A DNA stretch of 41,647 nt, taken from assembly GCA_031372565.1 (NCBI GenBank), contig JANMLN010000187.1, positions 1 to 41,647 on the forward strand, in the 5' to 3' direction. This document shows, in pieces, positions 10,965 through 25,651 of the stretch. Every line of letters starts with the position of its first letter. Position 1 is the stretch's first letter. A program made the translations under genes and the position numbers. Below the pieces are notes generated by a model. It made no database searches. It was not told where the DNA came from and saw only the letters and a program-made list of their open reading frames with translations. This stretch comes from Gemmatimonadota bacterium (GTDB lineage: Bacteria; Gemmatimonadota; Gemmatimonadetes; Gemmatimonadales; Gemmatimonadaceae).

Positions 10965-10965
<1 letters not shown>
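8059..10965 (+). CDS. Outer-membrane protein: N-terminal zincin-like peptidase domain, TolB/PD40 beta-propeller, C-terminal beta-barrel (Omp85-like)
   Basis: Signal peptide, HEYRH plus downstream WVWEGDAV, propeller repeats (PALSPDG, PRWAPDG), amphipathic strands and a terminal Phe (LVLQVSF). Start GTG 8059 is inferred. Confidence 0.75.
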
Positions 10966-13026
<2,061 letters not shown>

Positions 13027-13037
<11 letters not shown>

Positions 13038-13181
13038 GGGCAGCGAAGGATCTGCTTTTCGCGGGCTTCCTCCCCCGAGCTGTCGTCCTGAGCGCAGCGA
13101 AGGACCTGCTTTTCTCGGGCTTCCTTCGTCGAGCTAGGGTCGGGAGGCACAAGCAGGTCCTTCGCTTCGCTCAGGACGACA
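13027..13181. repeat. REP-like cluster: two 54-bp tandem units plus an inverted copy forming a long hairpin
   Basis: 13027-13080 versus 13081-13134 match at 46/54 nt. 13081-13111 versus the reverse complement of 13151-13181 match at 30/31 nt. Confidence 0.9.
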
Positions 13182-13187
13182 TATATT
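13182..13187 (+). promoter_or_regulatory. Putative -10 element (TATATT) for the leader-hppD-hmgA transcript
   Basis: AT-rich TAnnnT hexamer in GC-rich context, 5 nt before ATG 13193. Confidence 0.55.
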
Positions 13188-13192
13188 GCGGG

Positions 13193-13294
13193 ATGGCTCC
13201 TCGCGCGCCCTCCCGGATCGCACCCAACGGCGTCATTGGCGTCGAGTGGTCGCGCTGGTGGACCTCGGCGCGCACGGGCGCGCGCGGCGACTGA
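13193..13294 (+). CDS. Putative Trp-rich leader peptide (MAPRAPSRIAPNGVIGVEWSRWWTSARTGARGD)
   Basis: 33-codon ORF with TGG codons at 13247, 13256 and 13259, in the 5' leader of hppD, starting just after a -10-like hexamer. Confidence 0.55.
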   Translation: MAPRAPSRIAPNGVIGVEWSRWWTSARTGARGD

Positions 13295-13429
13295 CGGAAT
13301 CCCCCGGTCCGGGTGGCGCCTGCCGCCGCCCAGACCGGTGTTGCGTTGTGCCGGTCGAGGCCCGCTCCGGGCGCCCGGTTCCACACCGACCGACAGGGCC
13401 CGATCGCGCGGCCCACCGAGGGTTCCTCC

Positions 13430-14554
13430 ATGGCTACCAGCAGCGCTCCCGTCGCCTCGCAGACGCATGACACCTTCCCGATCAACGGGACGGATTACAT
13501 CGAGTTCTACGTCGGCAACGCCAAGCAGGCGTCGCTCTTCTACCAGACAGCGTTCGGCTACGAGCTCGTCGCCTACCGCGGCCCCGAGACCGGTGTCCGC
13601 GACCGGGTGAGCTACCTGCTCCAGCAGGACAAGATCCGCCTCCTGCTCACGTCGCCATTGGGACCCGAGGGACCGATTGCCGCGCATGTGAACCGGCACG
13701 GCGACGGCGTACGCGACCTCGCCTTCTGGGTGGATGATTGCCGCGACGCGTGGGCCAAGGCCGTCGAGCGCGGCGCCACGTCGGTGCAGGAGCCGACCGT
13801 CCTGTCCGACGCCGACGGCGAGATCGTGACGGCCGCGATTGCCACGTATGGCGAGACGATCCATTCGCTGGTGGAGCGCAAGAACTACCGCGGCCTGTTC
13901 ATGCCGGGCTTCCGAGCCGCCTCGTCGCCGGTGCCGGTGCGGCCGGTCGGCCTCAAGTACGTGGACCACTGCGTCGGCAATGTCGAGCTTGGCAAGATGA
14001 ACGAGTGGGTCGCCTTCTACGAGCGCGTCCTCGGCTTCTTCAACCTGCTCACGTTCGACGACAAGGACATCAGCACGGAGTACTCGTCGCTCATGTCCAA
14101 GGTCATGAGCAATGGCAACGGACGCATCAAGTTCCCGATCAACGAGCCCGCCTCGGGCAAGAAGAAGTCGCAGATCGAGGAGTATCTCGACTTCTATCGC
14201 GGGCCTGGCGTGCAGCACATCGCGATCGCCACCGACGACATCATCACGACCGTGAGCGAACTCAAGGCGCGCGGCGTGGCGTTCCTGAATACGCCCAGTT
14301 CGTACTACGAGGAGCTGCAGGCACGGGTCGGCGTGATCGACGAGCCGCTCGAGGTGTTGGCGCAGCTCGGCATCCTCGTGGATCGGGATGACGAGGGCTA
14401 CCTGCTCCAGATCTTCACCAAGCCGGTGCAGGACCGCCCCACGCTCTTCTACGAGATCATCCAGCGGAAGGGTGCCAAGGGGTTCGGGAAGGGGAACTTC
14501 AAGGCGCTCTTCGAGAGCATCGAACGCGAGCAGGATCTGCGGGGGAATCTCTAG
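13430..14554 (+). CDS. hppD: 4-hydroxyphenylpyruvate dioxygenase
   Basis: Motifs YIEFYVGNAKQA, HGDGVRDLAF, DHCVGNV, SQIEEYL, GVQHIA, FYEIIQR and GFGKGNFKALFESIE. Confidence 0.97.
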   Translation: MATSSAPVASQTHDTFPINGTDYIEFYVGNAKQASLFYQTAFGYELVAYRGPETGVRDRVSYLLQQDKIRLLLTSPLGPEGPIAAHVNRHGDGVRDLAFWVDDCRDAWAKAVERGATSVQEPTVLSDADGEIVTAAIATYGETIHSLVERKNYRGLFMPGFRAASSPVPVRPVGLKYVDHCVGNVELGKMNEWVAFYERVLGFFNLLTFDDKDISTEYSSLMSKVMSNGNGRIKFPINEPASGKKKSQIEEYLDFYRGPGVQHIAIATDDIITTVSELKARGVAFLNTPSSYYEELQARVGVIDEPLEVLAQLGILVDRDDEGYLLQIFTKPVQDRPTLFYEIIQRKGAKGFGKGNFKALFESIEREQDLRGNL

Positions 14555-14557
14555 ACC

Positions 14558-15751
14558 ATGCCGTTCTATCACACGCTGGGCGCCATGCCGCGCAAGCGGC
14601 ACACGATCTTTCGTCGGCCCGATGGCGGCCTGTACGCCGAAGAACTCATGGGACACGAGGGGTTTGTCGGGACGTCGAGTCTGTTGTACCACACGCATCC
14701 GCCGACCACGGTCAAGACGGCGCGGCGGGTGCGCGAGGACCGCTGGGAGGCCGACGAGAGCACCTCGCTCCGGCATCGCCACTTCCTGACGAGCCGAGCC
14801 CGGACGCGCGGCTCGGCCACGATGGATCGCACCCCGCTGCTGTTCAACGCCGACATCAAGATGGCGTACGTGGAGCCCGATGCGACGGACGCGCACTTCT
14901 ATCGCAACTCGCAGGCCGATGAGGTGGTGTACGTGGTGGAGGGGCACGGCACGCTGGCGTCGGTGTTCGGCGACCTGCCGTACCAGCCGGGCGACTATGT
15001 GGTGATCCACCGGAACATCACGCACCAGTGGCAGCTCGACACCGCAGCGGGACCCACGAAGCTCCTCGTGATGGAGAGCGCGGGCCACGTCCGGTTCCCG
15101 ACGCGCTATCGGAACGAGTTCGGCCAGCTCCTCGAAGGGGCGCCGTTCTCCGAGCGCGACATTCGCGTGCCGCGCGCGCTGGCACCGCGCGACGAGATGG
15201 GCGACTTCCCGATCTTCGTGAAGCAGTACGACGCGATCAACGAGTTGGTGCTCGACCACCATCCGTTCGACGTGGTCGGCTGGGACGGCTATTTCTACCC
15301 GTGGGCGTTCAACATCCACGACTTCGAGCCGATCGTCGGGCGCATCCACCAACCGCCGCCGGTGCACCAGACGTTCCAGGGCGACGGATTCGTGATCTGC
15401 TCGTTCTGCCCGCGCCCCTTCGATTTCGACCCGAACGCGATCCCCGCGCCGTACAACCACAGCAACGTGGATTCGGACGAGGTGCTGTTCTACGCCTCGA
15501 GTGAGTTCATGAGCCGGAAGGGGATCGAGTACGGGTCGATCACGCTGCATCCGGACGGGCTGCCGCACGGACCGCATCCGGGACGGACCGAGGCGTCGAT
15601 CGGTGCCAAGGCGACCAACGAGCTGGCGGTGATGATGGACTCGTTCCGTCCGCTCAAGGTGGCGAAGGCGGCCATGTCAATCGAGGACCCGGCGTACCAC
15701 CAGAGCTGGCTGGACGCGACGCACGCGGCGTTCAGTCCGCCGACGTCGTAG
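14558..15751 (+). CDS. hmgA: Homogentisate 1,2-dioxygenase
   Basis: Motifs HPFDVVGWDG, GRIHQPPPVH, PYNHSNVDSDEVLFY, TLHPDGLPHGP and ELAVMMDSFRPL; 3 nt after hppD. Confidence 0.95.
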   Translation: MPFYHTLGAMPRKRHTIFRRPDGGLYAEELMGHEGFVGTSSLLYHTHPPTTVKTARRVREDRWEADESTSLRHRHFLTSRARTRGSATMDRTPLLFNADIKMAYVEPDATDAHFYRNSQADEVVYVVEGHGTLASVFGDLPYQPGDYVVIHRNITHQWQLDTAAGPTKLLVMESAGHVRFPTRYRNEFGQLLEGAPFSERDIRVPRALAPRDEMGDFPIFVKQYDAINELVLDHHPFDVVGWDGYFYPWAFNIHDFEPIVGRIHQPPPVHQTFQGDGFVICSFCPRPFDFDPNAIPAPYNHSNVDSDEVLFYASSEFMSRKGIEYGSITLHPDGLPHGPHPGRTEASIGAKATNELAVMMDSFRPLKVAKAAMSIEDPAYHQSWLDATHAAFSPPTS

Positions 15752-15784: not shown

Positions 15785-16624
15785 TTACGGCTTGTCTTGC
15801 TCGCCGCGGCGGACGTTGCGCACGCGCGTCCACATCAGCACCACGCCGCATGACCCGGTCAGCTGCTTCTTGAACTGACTGGGCACCGTGGCGGGGCCGT
15901 TGTAGATCTCGATCGCCTCGAGATCCACCGGTCGCGTGGATCGGTGGATCGCTTCCTGGTCGGTCGGAATCCCGTCGAGATACATGTCCATGAGGCAGAC
16001 GCTGTTCTCCAGCGAACGCCCGCCGCGCTGCGACGTGATCAGGTACCACCCATTGGGGCCCGGTTCGACCCCGACCCCCGCGATGCCGCGCAGCAACTCA
16101 CCCACACTTGGCGAGTTGCGGTCGTTGATCTGCACCTGGGTCAGGAAGGTGCCGATCCCCGCCTTCCGCCGCTCCTCGAACCCCTGCAGCCACTCGTAGC
16201 CGCGCGTGTTCGTGCCGCGCACGCGCACCCCCGTGAGGACCGGTGTGACGCGGGGCGTGCGAATCGTGATCTGGTACTCCTCGGGGAGGGCGAGCTCCAT
16301 GTTGCCCGTCTCGCCCCCCATGAAGCCGACCTTGCGCACCCGGATGGAGAAGGTGCCCACCTTGGGCGCGCGCACGAGAAAGTTGCCGCCGGAGTCGGTC
16401 TTGGTGGTGGCGACCGCGGTGATCGAGTCGCTGAAGAGGATCACCGTCGCCTCGGGGACCGGGCGGTTACCGGTGATCTCGACGACCTTGCCGCGCACCG
16501 ACTGCGCGGCGAGCGACGTGCCGCTCGACAGGACCAGGCCGATCAGCAGCGAGAGCCGGGGGTGCGCACGCATCAGCATGGCGCCCATACCCCACACCAG
16601 TGCGAAAAGTTCGTCTCGAAGCAT
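15785..16624 (-). CDS. Secreted protein: carboxypeptidase-regulatory-like domain plus TonB-receptor plug-like domain (no barrel)
   Basis: Signal peptide ending SLAAQ; VRGKVV..PVPEATV..TDSGGNF; GFEERRKAGIGTFL; DLEAIEIYNG..CGVVLMWTR. Start uncertain (16624 or 16588). Confidence 0.75.
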   Translation of the reverse strand: MLRDELFALVWGMGAMLMRAHPRLSLLIGLVLSSGTSLAAQSVRGKVVEITGNRPVPEATVILFSDSITAVATTKTDSGGNFLVRAPKVGTFSIRVRKVGFMGGETGNMELALPEEYQITIRTPRVTPVLTGVRVRGTNTRGYEWLQGFEERRKAGIGTFLTQVQINDRNSPSVGELLRGIAGVGVEPGPNGWYLITSQRGGRSLENSVCLMDMYLDGIPTDQEAIHRSTRPVDLEAIEIYNGPATVPSQFKKQLTGSCGVVLMWTRVRNVRRGEQDKP

Positions 16625-16677
16625 CGTCAAATCTGGTAGATCGCGCACGCAACGCCAGCGGGGCGGTGCAGCTCGGG

Positions 16678-17454
16678 CTACTTCGCCTTGAACCGCGCGA
16701 TGGCCTGCCGCGTGAACTGCGACAGCACGAGGCGACCGCTCATGGCGGCGCGCTCGGGGAGGAGGGTCGGCCAGTGCTCCGTGCCTGCCCAGAACGTCCG
16801 CTTGAGGAGCGTCATCGCCTCCGGGTTCGCCTGCAAGAGTTTCTTGAGCGTGACGCCCAACAGCGCGTCGAACTCCGCCGGCGTGTCTGCAACCTTGGCG
16901 TAAAGCCCGTGTTGCGCAGCCCACGACGCCGAGAAGAAGTCGGCATCGACCGTCAGTGTCTGGAAGGCGCCGACGCCCATCTTGCGTTCGACCGCAGGGC
17001 CGACGACGAACGGGCCGATGCCGACGGCGAGTTCGGAGAGCTTGATGCTCGCACTGGCCATGGCGATCGCGTACTCGGAGGCGGCGCAGATGCCGACCCC
17101 TCCGCCCGCGACCTTGCCGTGCACGCGCGTCACGATGAACTGTGGCGCGTCCCGCATGGCGAGGATCACGCGCGCGAACCCCATGAAAAACTCGGTGCCC
17201 TGCGCCTCGTCCTCGATCGCCACGAGCTCGTCGAAACTCGCGCCCGCGCAGAACGACCCCGTCCCCTCGCTCTGCAGCAGGATGACGCGCGCATCGCGCG
17301 ACCGTCCGACCTCGGCAATCGTGAGGGCAAGCTGCCGGAGCAGCGCGCTGGGCAGGGAATTGCCCTTGGGGTGGGAGAAACTCACCGTCGCGATGCCATC
17401 GGCGATGGTGGCGGTCACAGTGCCCGGTTCGGGCAGGATCGAGGGAGCCGTCAT
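16678..17454 (-). CDS. Enoyl-CoA hydratase/isomerase (methylglutaconyl-CoA hydratase-like)
   Basis: Motifs FCAGASFDEL, VHGKVAGGGVG and LSELAVGIGPFV. TATCCT lies 7 nt upstream of the ATG. Confidence 0.88.
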   Translation of the reverse strand: MTAPSILPEPGTVTATIADGIATVSFSHPKGNSLPSALLRQLALTIAEVGRSRDARVILLQSEGTGSFCAGASFDELVAIEDEAQGTEFFMGFARVILAMRDAPQFIVTRVHGKVAGGGVGICAASEYAIAMASASIKLSELAVGIGPFVVGPAVERKMGVGAFQTLTVDADFFSASWAAQHGLYAKVADTPAEFDALLGVTLKKLLQANPEAMTLLKRTFWAGTEHWPTLLPERAAMSGRLVLSQFTRQAIARFKAK

Positions 17455-17563
17455 GACAGGGAGGATACCGACTGCGGGCCGTTGTGGCGAGCGGTGAAGT
17501 CCCGGTAGATTCCCTCAAGCCCAGCAACACCCGGGTGGGCAGGCCCCTGACGCTCCGCAACCG

Positions 17564-18532
17564 ATGACACCGACCGTCCAGGCACACCCCGAGGACGCGG
17601 CCCAGGTGGCCGCCTTCGAGGCGCGCATCGCCGCTGGCGAGCATATCGAGCCGAAAGACTGGATGCCGGAGCGCTACCGCCGGCAGCTCATTCGCATGAT
17701 GTCCCAGCACGCGCATTCCGAGTGCGTCGGCATGTTGCCCGAAGGGAACTGGATCACGCGAGCCCCCTCGTTGCGCCGAAAGATGACGCTCATCGCCAAG
17801 GTGCAGGACGAAGCGGGCCATGGGCATTACATCTACTGCGCCACCGAGACGCTGGGCGTGAGTCGTGACGAACTCCTCGACGATCTCCACGCGGGCAAGG
17901 CCAAGTACTCGTCGATCTTCAACTACCCCACGCTCACCTGGGCCGACATCGGCGTGATCGGCTGGTTCGTCGACGGGGCCGCGATCGTGAACCAGACGGT
18001 GCTGGCCAAGGCGAGCTATGGCCCCTACGCGCGGTCGATGATCCGGATCTGCAAGGAAGAGAACTTCCACAAGCGCCAGGGCTACGAGATCTGTGCGGTG
18101 CTGGCGCAGGGGACGGACGCGCAGCGGGCGATGCTGCAGGACGCGGTGAACCGTTGGTGGTGGCCGTCGCTCATGATGTTCGGACCGCCGGATGGCGCGT
18201 CGTCGAACTCCGATGAGTTGCTGCGCTGGAAGGTCAAGCGCTACACGAACGACGAGCTGCGTCAGCGGTTCATCAACCTGACCGTTCCGCAGGCGCAGGC
18301 GATCAACGTGGCCCTGCCCGACGCCGCCCTGCACTACGACACGACGAGTGGCCATTGGCAGTCCGGGCCCATCGACTGGGACGAGTTCTGGCAGGTCGTG
18401 AAGGGGAACGGACCGCTCAACCGGGAGCGCGTGGCGGCGCGCAAGGCGGCGCACGACGACGGGGCGTGGGTGCGCGCGGCCGCCGAGGCGCATGCGGCCA
18501 AGCAGGCGGCGCGTCGCGCGGCCGTGGCGTAG
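17564..18532 (+). CDS. paaA: Phenylacetyl-CoA 1,2-epoxidase subunit A
   Basis: Motifs [46 protein letters not shown] and [14 protein letters not shown]. Confidence 0.97.
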
Positions 18533-18545
18533 GCGCGATGATCGC

Positions 18546-18848
18546 ATGACGGATAACAACGCGACCGGCACCCAGTGGCCCCTGTGGGAAGTATTCACGC
18601 AGGAGGTGAGCGGTGCGCCGCATGAACACGCGGGCAGCGTCCATGCCGTCGACGGCGAGCAGGCGCTCCAGAACGCGCGCGACGTCTTCGGACGCCGCGG
18701 CAAGGTGATCTCGCTGTGGGTCGTGCCGAGCGATGCGATCGTGGCGTCGACGCCATCCGACGCGGGACCCTTCTTCGACCCCGGCAGCGAGAAGGCGTAT
18801 CGGCATCCGCAGTTCTACAAGGCGCCCCGCGGCGTGCGGATCTACTAG
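18546..18848 (+). CDS. paaB: Phenylacetyl-CoA 1,2-epoxidase subunit B
   Basis: Motifs WPLWEVF, HAGSVHA, ALQNARDVFGRR, SLWVV and KAYRHPQFY. Confidence 0.95.
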   Translation: MTDNNATGTQWPLWEVFTQEVSGAPHEHAGSVHAVDGEQALQNARDVFGRRGKVISLWVVPSDAIVASTPSDAGPFFDPGSEKAYRHPQFYKAPRGVRIY

Positions 18849-24166: not shown

Positions 24167-24275
24167 CGGTCCGCGACTCAACGCCCGCAGCAACCGGCGC
24201 CAACGGCGGCCCACCCACCCGAGCGCTCCGCCGGCGTAGACCGATACGATCTCGCCCGTCTCCACGAAGCAACAC

Positions 24276-24330
24276 TTGACGGGAAAGGCACGCCATGTAT
24301 TATACCAGACAGCTAATTAACCAAACAGTA
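24276..24330. promoter_or_regulatory. Promoter region of arsR-SRPBCC operon with overlapping antisense extended -10
   Basis: + strand TTGACG 24276-24281, 16 nt, TATTAT 24298-24303. - strand TGGTATAAT 24307-24299. AT-rich imperfect palindrome TTAACCAAACAGTAA downstream is a possible ArsR operator. Confidence 0.6.
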
Positions 24331-24333
24331 AAC

Positions 24334-24705
24334 ATGCCAGATACCCTCAGTCAAACCTTCGCCGCCCTCGCCGACCCCACCCGGCGGGCCATGCTCGCTC
24401 GGCTGCGGCAGGGCGAGGCGACGGTCAGCGAATTGGCCGAGCCCTTTCTCCATCGCATGACGCTCCCCGGCGTCACCAAGCACCTCAAGGTGCTCGAGCG
24501 CGCGGGGCTCGTCACGAAGGGGCGCGAGGCGCAGTGGCGCCCATGCACGCTCAATGCCGCGCCGCTCACCGATGCCGCGCGCTGGATGGAGGCGTATCGG
24601 GTGCACATGGAAGCAAGCCTCGATCGCCTTGGCGAGTACCTGAAAACCATCTCCGACACAACCACGTCCCCCACACCCGCACCGACCGATGACTGCCGTG
24701 AATGA
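24334..24705 (+). CDS. ArsR/SmtB family transcriptional regulator
   Basis: Motifs FAALADPTRRAML, TVSELAEPF, KHLKVLERAGLV and REAQWRPC. Confidence 0.92.
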   Translation: MPDTLSQTFAALADPTRRAMLARLRQGEATVSELAEPFLHRMTLPGVTKHLKVLERAGLVTKGREAQWRPCTLNAAPLTDAARWMEAYRVHMEASLDRLGEYLKTISDTTTSPTPAPTDDCRE

Positions 24706-25651
24706 CTCGAACGAGATCCGCATCGTGCGGCTCTACGACGCACCCGTTGCGCTCGTCTGGTCGGCCTGGACCGAGGAGCACCATGTGGGACAGTGGTGGG
24801 GCCCGCGCGGCTTCAGCATTACCACGAGGAGCAAGGACATCCGCGCCGGCGGCACGTGGGAGTACACCATGCACGGCCCCGATGGCAAGGACTGGCCCAA
24901 CTTCACGCGCTACCACGAGGTCGTGCCGCGTGAGCGTCTCGTCTACGACCACGGCGCCACCTCGGCCGATGCCGCTCCGATGTTTCGCGTGACCGCCACC
25001 TTCCGCGAGGTCGATGGCAAGACCGAGCTCGACATGCGCATGACGCTCCCCACCGTCGAGGCGGCGCGCGAGACGCGCGGGTTCATCAAGGCGGCCGGCG
25101 GCAACGGCACCTGGGATCGTCTGGCCGAGTTCCTGGAGAAGCAGACGACGGCGCGTGACATCTTCGTCATCAATCGCACCTTCGAGGCGCCGCTCGCCAC
25201 GGTGTGGAAGATGTGGAGCACCCCCGAACACGTGGCGCGCTGGACACCGCCCACCGGCTTCACGATGGAGTTCAAGCACGTGGACCTGCGTGCGGGCGGC
25301 GAAGGCTTCTACGCGATGGGTAACGGCCAGTTCACGATGTACGGCCGCGTGCAGTATCTGGAGCTCCGCGCCCCCGATCGACTGGTGTACGTGCAGAGCT
25401 TCGCCGACGAGCACGGCAACATCTCGCGGCATCCCGGCGCGCCCGTCTGGCCTGAGAAGATGCTCACGACGGTGACGCTTGCGGCCGAGGGGCCCGCGCT
25501 CACGCGCGTGACGCTTCGTTGGGAGCCATACGGCGCGGCCACGCCCGACGAGATCGCGGCGTTCGTCAAGGAACGCGGCGGCATGACGCAGGGGTGGACG
25601 GGGTCGCTCGACAAGCTCGAGGCGGTGTTGGCCGAGCTGCCGATGTCGTGA
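24689..25651 (+). CDS. Tandem SRPBCC (AHSA1-like) domain protein
   Basis: Two repeats, RLYDAPVALVWSAWT..WWGPRGF and RTFEAPLATVWKMW..WTPPTGF, ending GWTGSLDKL. Confidence 0.9.
   Translation: MTAVNDSNEIRIVRLYDAPVALVWSAWTEEHHVGQWWGPRGFSITTRSKDIRAGGTWEYTMHGPDGKDWPNFTRYHEVVPRERLVYDHGATSADAAPMFRVTATFREVDGKTELDMRMTLPTVEAARETRGFIKAAGGNGTWDRLAEFLEKQTTARDIFVINRTFEAPLATVWKMWSTPEHVARWTPPTGFTMEFKHVDLRAGGEGFYAMGNGQFTMYGRVQYLELRAPDRLVYVQSFADEHGNISRHPGAPVWPEKMLTTVTLAAEGPALTRVTLRWEPYGAATPDEIAAFVKERGGMTQGWTGSLDKLEAVLAELPMS

Follow-up and report, generated by a model that had tools for sequence, protein, structure and literature searches.

We analysed a 41,647-nt stretch of DNA from a Gemmatimonadaceae bacterium (contig JANMLN010000187.1, hereafter the window; G+C ~69%), in which a short upstream open reading frame (uORF) lies ahead of two genes for aromatic amino-acid breakdown, hppD and an hmgA-like gene. 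The 392-nt intergenic region between the preceding acetoacetate--CoA ligase gene and hppD (13038-13429) holds the leader features. Ligase, hppD and hmgA all belong to the route from tyrosine and phenylalanine to acetoacetate, the ligase standing at the last step of this breakdown route, and no transcription-factor gene adjoins hppD-hmgA within the window. The start codon of hppD (ATG 13430) aligns with the first methionine of most relatives. A first-pass annotation of this DNA had read the region as a tryptophan-sensing leader, pointing to a TATATT hexamer (13182-13187) 5 nt ahead of a 33-aa ORF (ATG 13193 to TGA 13292-13294) with Trp at residues 19, 22 and 23, and to a 135-nt spacer (13295-13429) before hppD. 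All of these elements are present. Sequence comparison indicates that this 33-codon reading frame is genuine and conserved, and that it is a leader ORF on the hppD-hmgA transcript.

Our comparison covered 80 hppD loci, 36 of them of Gemmatimonadota type (L001-L034, L047 and L065). One of these (L013) was left out because its contig starts inside hppD, leaving 35 Gemmatimonadota loci with upstream sequence. The best loci are Gemmatimonadales/Gemmatimonadaceae metagenome-assembled genomes (MAGs), with 72-83% identity to the window hppD. One locus, L004, carries a homologous, co-oriented uORF (43 codons, starting at ATG 3781), separated by 88 nt from an hppD downstream that is 80% identical to the window's. 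Comparison by tblastx aligned the two tails with their stops in register (WGRFWTSAATGARGS-stop in L004 versus WSRWWTSARTGARGD-stop in the window). The upstream neighbours differ (a divergent Rossmann-type gene in L004, the acetoacetate--CoA ligase gene and a repeat element in the window), and despite this the uORF adjoins hppD, co-oriented, in both contexts that are known. By blastn alone, the leader could be aligned with none of these loci, the best match being L004 with 16 identical nucleotides (E 0.12), and a nucleotide search with the leader against the 80 loci returned short GC-rich matches only.

Conservation of the tail is specific to the uORF frame. In that frame, 12 of 16 residues are identical between the window and L004 (BLOSUM score 67), versus 7/15 in each of the two remaining sense frames and, on the antisense strand, 8/16, 9/15 and 5/15 (BLOSUM 13-38). 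Sixteen nucleotides differ in the tail. All three isolated differences fall at third positions and are synonymous (CGC/CGA, ACC/ACG, GCG/GCC), and all three 3-nt difference blocks are codon-aligned, one of them being a Ser-to-Ser exchange (TCG/AGC). A permutation null on these differences gave P of about 1e-4; this null ignores their clustering, for which the frame comparison serves as a control. Identical residues use the same codon in 5/9 cases in the tail and in 184/293 cases in hppD of the same two genomes.

A profile built from the window and L004 peptides was then run with hmmsearch against 1,835,955,588 representative proteins (E<=0.001). Exactly two matches were returned, both tiny proteins and both matched at their extreme C-terminus: P0002 (44 aa, E 2.4e-5, MTLQSDSFRPLARAVTHGVRAARAFTASEWGRFWTSSATGARGR) and P0003 (38 aa, E 1.6e-4, MRAAVRLWSDQGEMKNPEPIGVEWTRWWTSAATGARAV). 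When all four sequences were used as query in a word-indexed search, a further member was recovered, P0004 (44 aa), which is 80% identical to P0002 and corresponds to the NCBI entry 'MAG: hypothetical protein ACYC3L_07520 [Gemmatimonadaceae bacterium]'. The same kind of search with the two-sequence alignment found nothing among proteins of 18-76 aa or 77-2000 aa, and is a weak test for such peptides because it found P0002-P0004 only after these had been included in the query. Scores from the ESM Atlas (best 0.79-0.81) were uninformative, and no Pfam or NCBIfam family is matched by the uORF, the L004 peptide, P0002, P0003 or P0004. A Bacteroidota match by tblastn with PAM30 (L039, E 2.6e-4) was rejected, being an off-frame of a real opposite-strand gene and having no stop.

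The five members form two subgroups (the window with P0003; L004 with P0002 and P0004) and share the motif W-x-R-[W/F]-W-T-S-x-x-T-G-A-R-x-x-stop. In window numbering, W19, R21, W23, T24, S25, T28, G29, A30 and R31 are invariant in the four aligned sequences (4/4), and P0004 agrees. Position 22 is W in two members and F in three, and the stop follows two residues after R31 in all five (TGA in both members for which DNA is available). The N-terminal part (18-29 residues), in contrast, varies in length and sequence: P0002 and P0004 show nine differences over residues 1-19 and none over the 25 C-terminal residues.

Table 1. Features of the hppD leader region and its flanking genes (positions are those of the window).
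Feature	Position	Strand	Description
Acetoacetate--CoA ligase gene	10965..13037	+	Upstream neighbour; TIGR01217 E 5.3e-266, NF002937 E 1.3e-275, Pfam AMP-binding and ACAS_N
Repeat element	13020..13181		A pair of direct 54-nt units with an inverted arm of 31 nt (13081-13111 / 13151-13181)
TATATT	13182..13187	+	Probable -10 element of the uORF-hppD-hmgA transcript (predicted)
uORF	13193..13294	+	33 codons and TGA; candidate leader peptide MAPRAPSRIAPNGVIGVEWSRWWTSARTGARGD
C-terminal motif coding region	13247..13291	+	W19-S-R-W-W-T-S-A-R-T-G-A-R-G-D33
UGA stop of the uORF	13292..13294	+	Two residues past the invariant Arg in all five members
Spacer	13295..13429	+	135 nt; not alignable with the 88-nt spacer of L004, alignment decays after TGA
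GC hairpin	13304..13338	+	Starts 10 nt past the stop, followed by UGUUGCGUUGUG
hppD Shine-Dalgarno sequence	13418..13428	+	GAGG(G); 4-bp mini-hairpin with CCUC
hppD	13430..14554	+	4-hydroxyphenylpyruvate dioxygenase; TIGR01263 4HPPD E 7.6e-137
hmgA-like gene	14558..15751	+	Divergent homogentisate 1,2-dioxygenase-like cupin gene, 3 nt after hppD; Pfam HgmA_N E 8.5e-09 and Cupin_2

We considered whether the uORF might have no peptide function at all, being a chance frame in GC-rich non-coding DNA that resembles L004 and P0002-P0004 because a site in the DNA or RNA is conserved (an operator or promoter element, for example). Open frames run long by chance at this G+C content, W clusters are common in the window, and the weak blastn match between the window and L004 consists of a perfectly identical 16-nt core, CACGGGCGCGCGCGGC. 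However, a nucleotide site would not account for conservation that is confined to one frame, for differences that are codon-aligned and synonymous, for a search of 1.84 billion proteins whose only two matches both end at the same offset, or for a stop position that is fixed in 5/5 members. We consider this explanation improbable, and the uORF, which comparison with relatives places far beyond chance, is very probably a selected peptide-coding element. The alignment of the five peptides indicates that the selected part is the last 15 residues together with the exact position of the stop.

The TATATT hexamer is unique on both strands of the window. In 10 of the 35 Gemmatimonadota loci, the 250 nt upstream of hppD contain a sequence of the form TA[TGC]ATT. 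Relative to the remainder of these loci the enrichment is 24-fold, and it is partly compositional, intergenic DNA being more AT-rich; in L004, TACATT lies 13 nt ahead of the uORF ATG. No TAnnnT is present between the uORF start and hppD in either the window or L004, and hppD is therefore probably transcribed through the uORF. Because the ATG lies so close behind TATATT, the uORF would be leaderless or nearly so. We infer that TATATT is the -10 element of a transcript that starts at or next to the uORF ATG and runs into hppD. No sigma-70 consensus promoter was called around the leader, and a search of the literature on leaderless transcripts or transcription start sites in Gemmatimonadetes found nothing.

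In the mechanism put forward by the first-pass annotation, Trp-tRNA starvation pauses a ribosome on the tandem Trp codons (WW) and thereby frees or masks an anti-Shine-Dalgarno (anti-SD) segment (13256-13268) that pairs with the hppD SD sequence and start codon (13416-13430). This helix does exist, with 12 pairs, one U.U mismatch, a 2-nt bulge and a predicted energy of -16.8 kcal/mol, and the competing small helices named alongside it (GAGG/CCUC, GACCGG/CCGGTC and GGGCC/GGCCC) are likewise all present. The helix is not beyond chance, however: 1000 of 1000 dinucleotide-shuffled leaders offer a partner for the ribosome-binding-site (RBS) segment that is at least as good (mean -23.2), and the best partner in the real leader is 13292-13314 at -20.5 kcal/mol rather than the WW segment. 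It is also scarcely populated, as its pairs have ensemble probabilities of 0.001-0.07, and the SD sequence instead pairs in the GAGG/CCUC hairpin (probability ~0.8) regardless of the state of the uORF region. Holding 13245-13275 unpaired, the fold by which the annotation had suggested checking its proposal, moved mean RBS accessibility only from 0.374 to 0.406, and under all ribosome-position constraints this value stayed within 0.37-0.41 in the window and 0.32-0.39 in L004. Finally, the helix cannot exist in L004, because hppD there lacks a GGAG and pairing of the W segment with the RBS reaches only -13.3 kcal/mol. The annotation itself cautioned that high GC eases chance pairing, and the pairing on which its appeal rested was a chance product of high GC.

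Other parts of that proposal fared unevenly. The spacer had been called structured, yet the minimum free energy of 13188-13450 (-135.7 kcal/mol) equals the mean of 200 dinucleotide shuffles (-135.72; z 0.00), and the whole-leader fold of L004 has no excess stability either (z -0.98). The reported lack of a U-tract terminator was borne out, none being called in 12800-13600, and Rfam gave no match at gathering thresholds anywhere in the window (in 12950-13520, sub-threshold noise only, E 0.9-3.3). The three Trp codons in five are there, but the cluster alone is unremarkable, since the sequence of this genome commonly gives rise to such clusters: across the six frames of the window there are 12 instances of five in-frame codons with three TGG, versus 1.66 +/- 1.18 in 50 Markov-1 simulations. 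The annotation had named loss of the uORF or its Trp codons in relatives as fatal to its idea; the uORF itself is conserved, and W19 and W23 are invariant in 5/5 members, but the tandem WW is found in only 2/5, the remaining 3/5 having FW.

These results indicate that hppD is not switched through the WW/anti-SD helix. The presence of the pairing and the invariance of two of the three clustered Trp residues are what can be said for Trp-tRNA starvation acting through this helix, and neither accounts for the conserved non-Trp residues or the fixed stop. Comparison with relatives largely refutes this mechanism, and we consider it very improbable. Folding predictions likewise do not support a translational SD-unmasking mechanism. 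What survives of the claim that a leader controls hppD-hmgA is a conserved leader-type uORF directly upstream of these genes and behind a probable -10 element, and what falls is the proposed Trp/anti-SD mechanism.

Attenuation at the level of codons does not need the anti-SD helix. Attenuators of the trpL type combine tandem Trp codons with a short leader ORF, and the uORF resembles them in being a short leader ORF with clustered Trp codons that is followed by a hairpin. Here the Trp codons, and the Trp or Phe codon at position 22, would sense charged aromatic tRNAs, the hairpin at 13304-13338 would decide read-through, and conservation of the tail would reflect RNA segments that overlap the coding sequence. 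The aromatic codons are invariant or conservatively aromatic, and the window and L004 share the 16-nt core nucleotide for nucleotide. A strong hairpin does follow the stop (13295-13352, -31.4 kcal/mol, z -2.80, 5/200 shuffles as stable, in the top 1.8% of 1040 same-length segments), and in the window a U-rich run (6 U in 12) lies directly behind it. In addition, 13199-13210 may pair with 13276-13287 (12 nt, 92%). On the other hand, synonymous changes occur at the conserved R, T, S and A codons right beside the Trp codons, no terminator was called and the L004 hairpin lacks a U-tract, and leader structure is not in excess in either locus (the z scores given above). The logic would also be unusual, in that the Trp-codon attenuators known to us control biosynthetic, not catabolic, operons. 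The uORF is further unlike trpL in that tandem WW is not general to the family, in the absence of a canonical terminator, in that it precedes catabolic genes for other amino acids, and in the conservation of T24, S25, T28, G29, A30, R31 and the stop position. Since a pure sensor of Trp-codon starvation would need no selection on these residues or on the stop, the uORF is probably not one, and we regard codon-level attenuation as a whole as improbable.

The family has a fixed tail and stop behind an N-terminus that is free to vary, a pattern characteristic of nascent chains that exert their effect within the exit tunnel of the ribosome. The conservative W/F exchange at position 22, together with selection on non-aromatic residues, favours side chains over codons as the thing that is read. 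We favour, at somewhat less than even confidence, a cis-acting arrest-type leader peptide that acts at or near its stop, beside a strong hairpin, and controls hppD-hmgA. In such a mechanism, transcription would start just after TATATT, and translation of the uORF would begin at a 5' end with little or no leader. When the ribosome reaches UGA, the tail would slow or block termination, with the Arg at -2 and the Trp residues at -10 and -14 from the last residue. Measured from the P-site codon's first base, toeprints lie ~16 nt away. At this distance, a ribosome that has UGA in its A site should reach the hairpin base, 6-10 nt past the stop, with its leading edge and may cover the start of the C-rich spacer. 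The L004 hairpin begins ~6 nt past its stop (-28.9 kcal/mol, top 1.5% of 454 segments). A stalled and a released ribosome would then have different consequences for transcription into hppD-hmgA, through hairpin-dependent or Rho-dependent termination.

The arrest might respond to an aromatic ligand (such as tyrosine, phenylalanine or a catabolite). In the most specific version, the tail and the exit tunnel would together bind Tyr, Phe, 4-hydroxyphenylpyruvate or homogentisate, block release at UGA and thereby induce hppD-hmgA. We think this version unlikely. Such a peptide would, to our knowledge, join TnaC and SpeFL as the third natural sensor of this kind for an amino acid or metabolite and would be the first in Gemmatimonadota; it would be read from a leaderless uORF and have a SecM-like W/G/R register at a stop codon.

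The closest functional parallel for an arrest-type leader is TnaC of the E. coli tnaCAB (tryptophanase) operon, which is also a short uORF before aromatic amino-acid catabolic genes. According to excerpts of PMC8450073, the TnaC uORF of this catabolic operon is followed by a Rho-dependent terminator, arrest occurs at UGA with free L-Trp bound, and W12 is essential; a reference cited there is titled to the effect that TnaC needs its C-terminal Pro. Like TnaC, the uORF has conserved C-terminal residues that include Trp and a fixed stop codon. The essential Trp of TnaC lies ~10-14 residues from the C-terminus, as does the invariant Trp of the uORF, and the proposed action of the uORF would similarly take place at the UGA stop and through what follows it, not through an SD switch. 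Unlike TnaC, the uORF comes from another phylum, shows no sequence similarity or family match, and probably has a leaderless start. The spacers behind the uORF, where TnaC has its Rho site, are mildly C-rich, with C/G ratios of 1.21 (window) and 1.36 (L004). The only clear case of a C-rich, G-poor stretch is in the last 40 nt of the L004 spacer (16-17 C versus 3-4 G per 30 nt).

A second parallel is the SecM/RAPP type of arrest peptide, for which PMC11190716 gives the SecM motif as 150-FxxxxWIxxxxGIRAGP-166. In excerpts of PMC10951299, Gly165 occupies the P site and Pro166 the A site, Arg163 is critical, and the mechanism needs the secondary amine of Pro. The spacing W23/G29/R31/stop34 of the uORF equals W155/G161/R163/Pro166 of SecM, a match found by residue counting and not by a statistical test. 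Both have a R-[A/G] pair at -2/-1 of the P-site residue (G/A32 versus A164) and a variable N-terminus. The downstream gene here is hppD, however, not a Sec/YidC component. Small uORFs that block release at their own stop and regulate the downstream gene offer a third parallel, stalling being hypothetical for our uORF, which has no sequence relationship to them. PepNL (14 aa) blocks release at a UGA stop and is described in excerpts of PMC11890864 as doing so without Pro and as needing no inducer, and SpeFL is a sensor of L-ornithine as TnaC is of L-Trp (PMC8450073, in part). We do not claim membership in the TnaC, SecM or PepNL families, because there is no family match, the C-terminal residue is variable and an A-site Pro is lacking.

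Several observations weigh against an arrest-type leader. The last residue of the peptide is variable (D, V, S, R and R in the five members), unlike the conserved Pro24 of TnaC, and SecM needs an A-site Pro where the uORF has a stop codon. The uORF has no SD sequence, and its translation and leaderless start are predictions. Downstream of the stop, the L004 hairpin is largely explained by composition (z -0.83) and lacks a U-tract, the excess of C over G in both spacers is modest, and a ribosome placed at the stop barely shifts predicted RBS accessibility (window, 0.374 to 0.399; L004, 0.32 to 0.389). The family comprises only five sequences in two subgroups, with DNA context for two of the five, and the identical core CACGGGCGCGCGCGGC could reflect constraint at the nucleotide level.

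The distribution of the uORF also counts against an arrest-type leader. Apart from the window, the uORF is found in 1 of the 35 Gemmatimonadota species-representative loci (L004). In a Smith-Waterman and regular-expression search of the 450 nt upstream of hppD in these loci, L004 scored 66 and all others at most 41; the next-best candidates, L018 and L002, were rejected as off-frames of a real upstream gene. Neither the 80 loci nor the window yielded another copy in an nhmmer search with the window/L004 core. An hppD tree was built from 39 rows (the window, the 35 Gemmatimonadota loci and three outgroups, omitting L013 and the remaining 41 Bacteroidota/Rhodothermota loci), and in it the window and L004 fall on opposite sides of a six-row clade (support 82/91). 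L001, L002, L003 and L006 of the same clade lack the uORF, L001-L003 being the window's nearest relatives. The uORF is dispensable, because 34 of the 35 related hppD loci do without it, and these surveys indicate that it is limited to a small, patchy set of Gemmatimonadaceae-type genomes.

This patchiness also bears on a different explanation, in which the uORF encodes a free-standing 33-44 aa protein that acts in trans (for example with HppD or HmgA, or in an unrelated role) and is merely co-transcribed with hppD. Conservation at the peptide level and the co-oriented position next to hppD in 2/2 known contexts would both be expected of such a gene. A protein of this kind should not, however, be conserved only over its C-terminal 15-25 residues with a free N-terminus and variable length; moreover, it has no hydrophobic segment or known domain, it occurs at 1/35 hppD loci, and the 88-135 nt gap with a strong hairpin before hppD is not tight operon spacing. 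We judge this explanation rather unlikely.

In the literature we found no natural leader or arrest peptide for the Tyr/Phe-catabolic hppD/homogentisate pathway, a search whose scope excluded most subscription journals and supplements. An engineered 'LRR' attenuator on hppD in Bacillus (PMC8601186) is irrelevant to a natural leader. Few natural leader peptides are known through which the ribosome senses a small molecule, and a conserved leader, unrelated in sequence, before Tyr/Phe degradation genes of a little-studied phylum would be a new candidate that is directly testable. If it acts as we propose, hppD-hmgA could be regulated without a neighbouring transcription factor. A peptide with the W/G/R spacing of SecM that ends at a stop codon would also be useful for comparing arrest mechanisms. 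A practical lesson is that the genuine signal emerged only on comparison with relatives.

The uORF, spacer and hppD share one reading frame in the window, whose sole stop up to 14554 is TGA 13292. We rejected an N-terminally extended HppD made by UGA read-through, since the 88-nt spacer of L004 is out of frame and the arrangement is not conserved; the shared frame is probably a coincidence. In L002, L005, L018, L023 and L024, the acetoacetate--CoA ligase gene and hppD lie ~1.1 kb apart, with an extra gene between them. It ends ...SFL(D/E)A...-stop and reaches to ~40-80 nt from hppD, and its off-frames give WW-containing pseudo-ORFs that mimic the uORF motif. The idea that the leader is a decayed remnant of this gene, as found in L002, L005, L018 and L024, received no support from tblastx.

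The hmgA-like product is short (397 aa) and scores 46 bits with TIGR01015 against a cut-off of 510. Its gene is syntenic with hppD in the 36 Gemmatimonadota-type loci except L024, and is present in L004. It is also syntenic with hppD in some Rhodothermota and Bacteroidota loci. Weak similarity and synteny together lend tentative support to its assignment as a homogentisate dioxygenase.

The repeat element on the other side of the uORF runs from within the final codons of the ligase gene right up to TATATT. Its direct units are 87% identical and its inverted arms 97% complementary, and it folds very stably (z -5.53; 0/200 shuffles as stable). A second copy (51-119) follows closely on the 3' end of a convergent gene. 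The two copies, both just 3' of genes, share the core GTCCTGAGCGCAGCGAAGGACCTGC plus its inverse, and no copy was found in the 80 related loci. By its features the repeat could be a REP/MITE-like element or an insulator resembling a terminator.

Two further loci of the window lie apart from the leader. On the minus strand (15785-16600 and 15785-18703), the CarboxypepD_reg and Plug domains of a 972-codon open frame are confined to the final 240 residues, and the frame overlaps a plus-strand PaaA/PaaC gene (17564-18532, E 1.7e-90); for these two reasons most of the frame is spurious, and what remains looks like a short, possibly truncated N-terminal fragment of a TonB-dependent receptor. The only markedly AT-rich intergenic patch of the window (24260-24340) holds its only TATAAT (minus strand, 24304) and precedes an ArsR-type helix-turn-helix (HTH) regulator gene (24334-24702, plus strand; HTH_20 E 1.5e-13). 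The 3' end of this gene overlaps the start of an AHSA1/SRPBCC gene (24689-25651, plus strand), and the pair probably forms an autoregulated two-gene operon.

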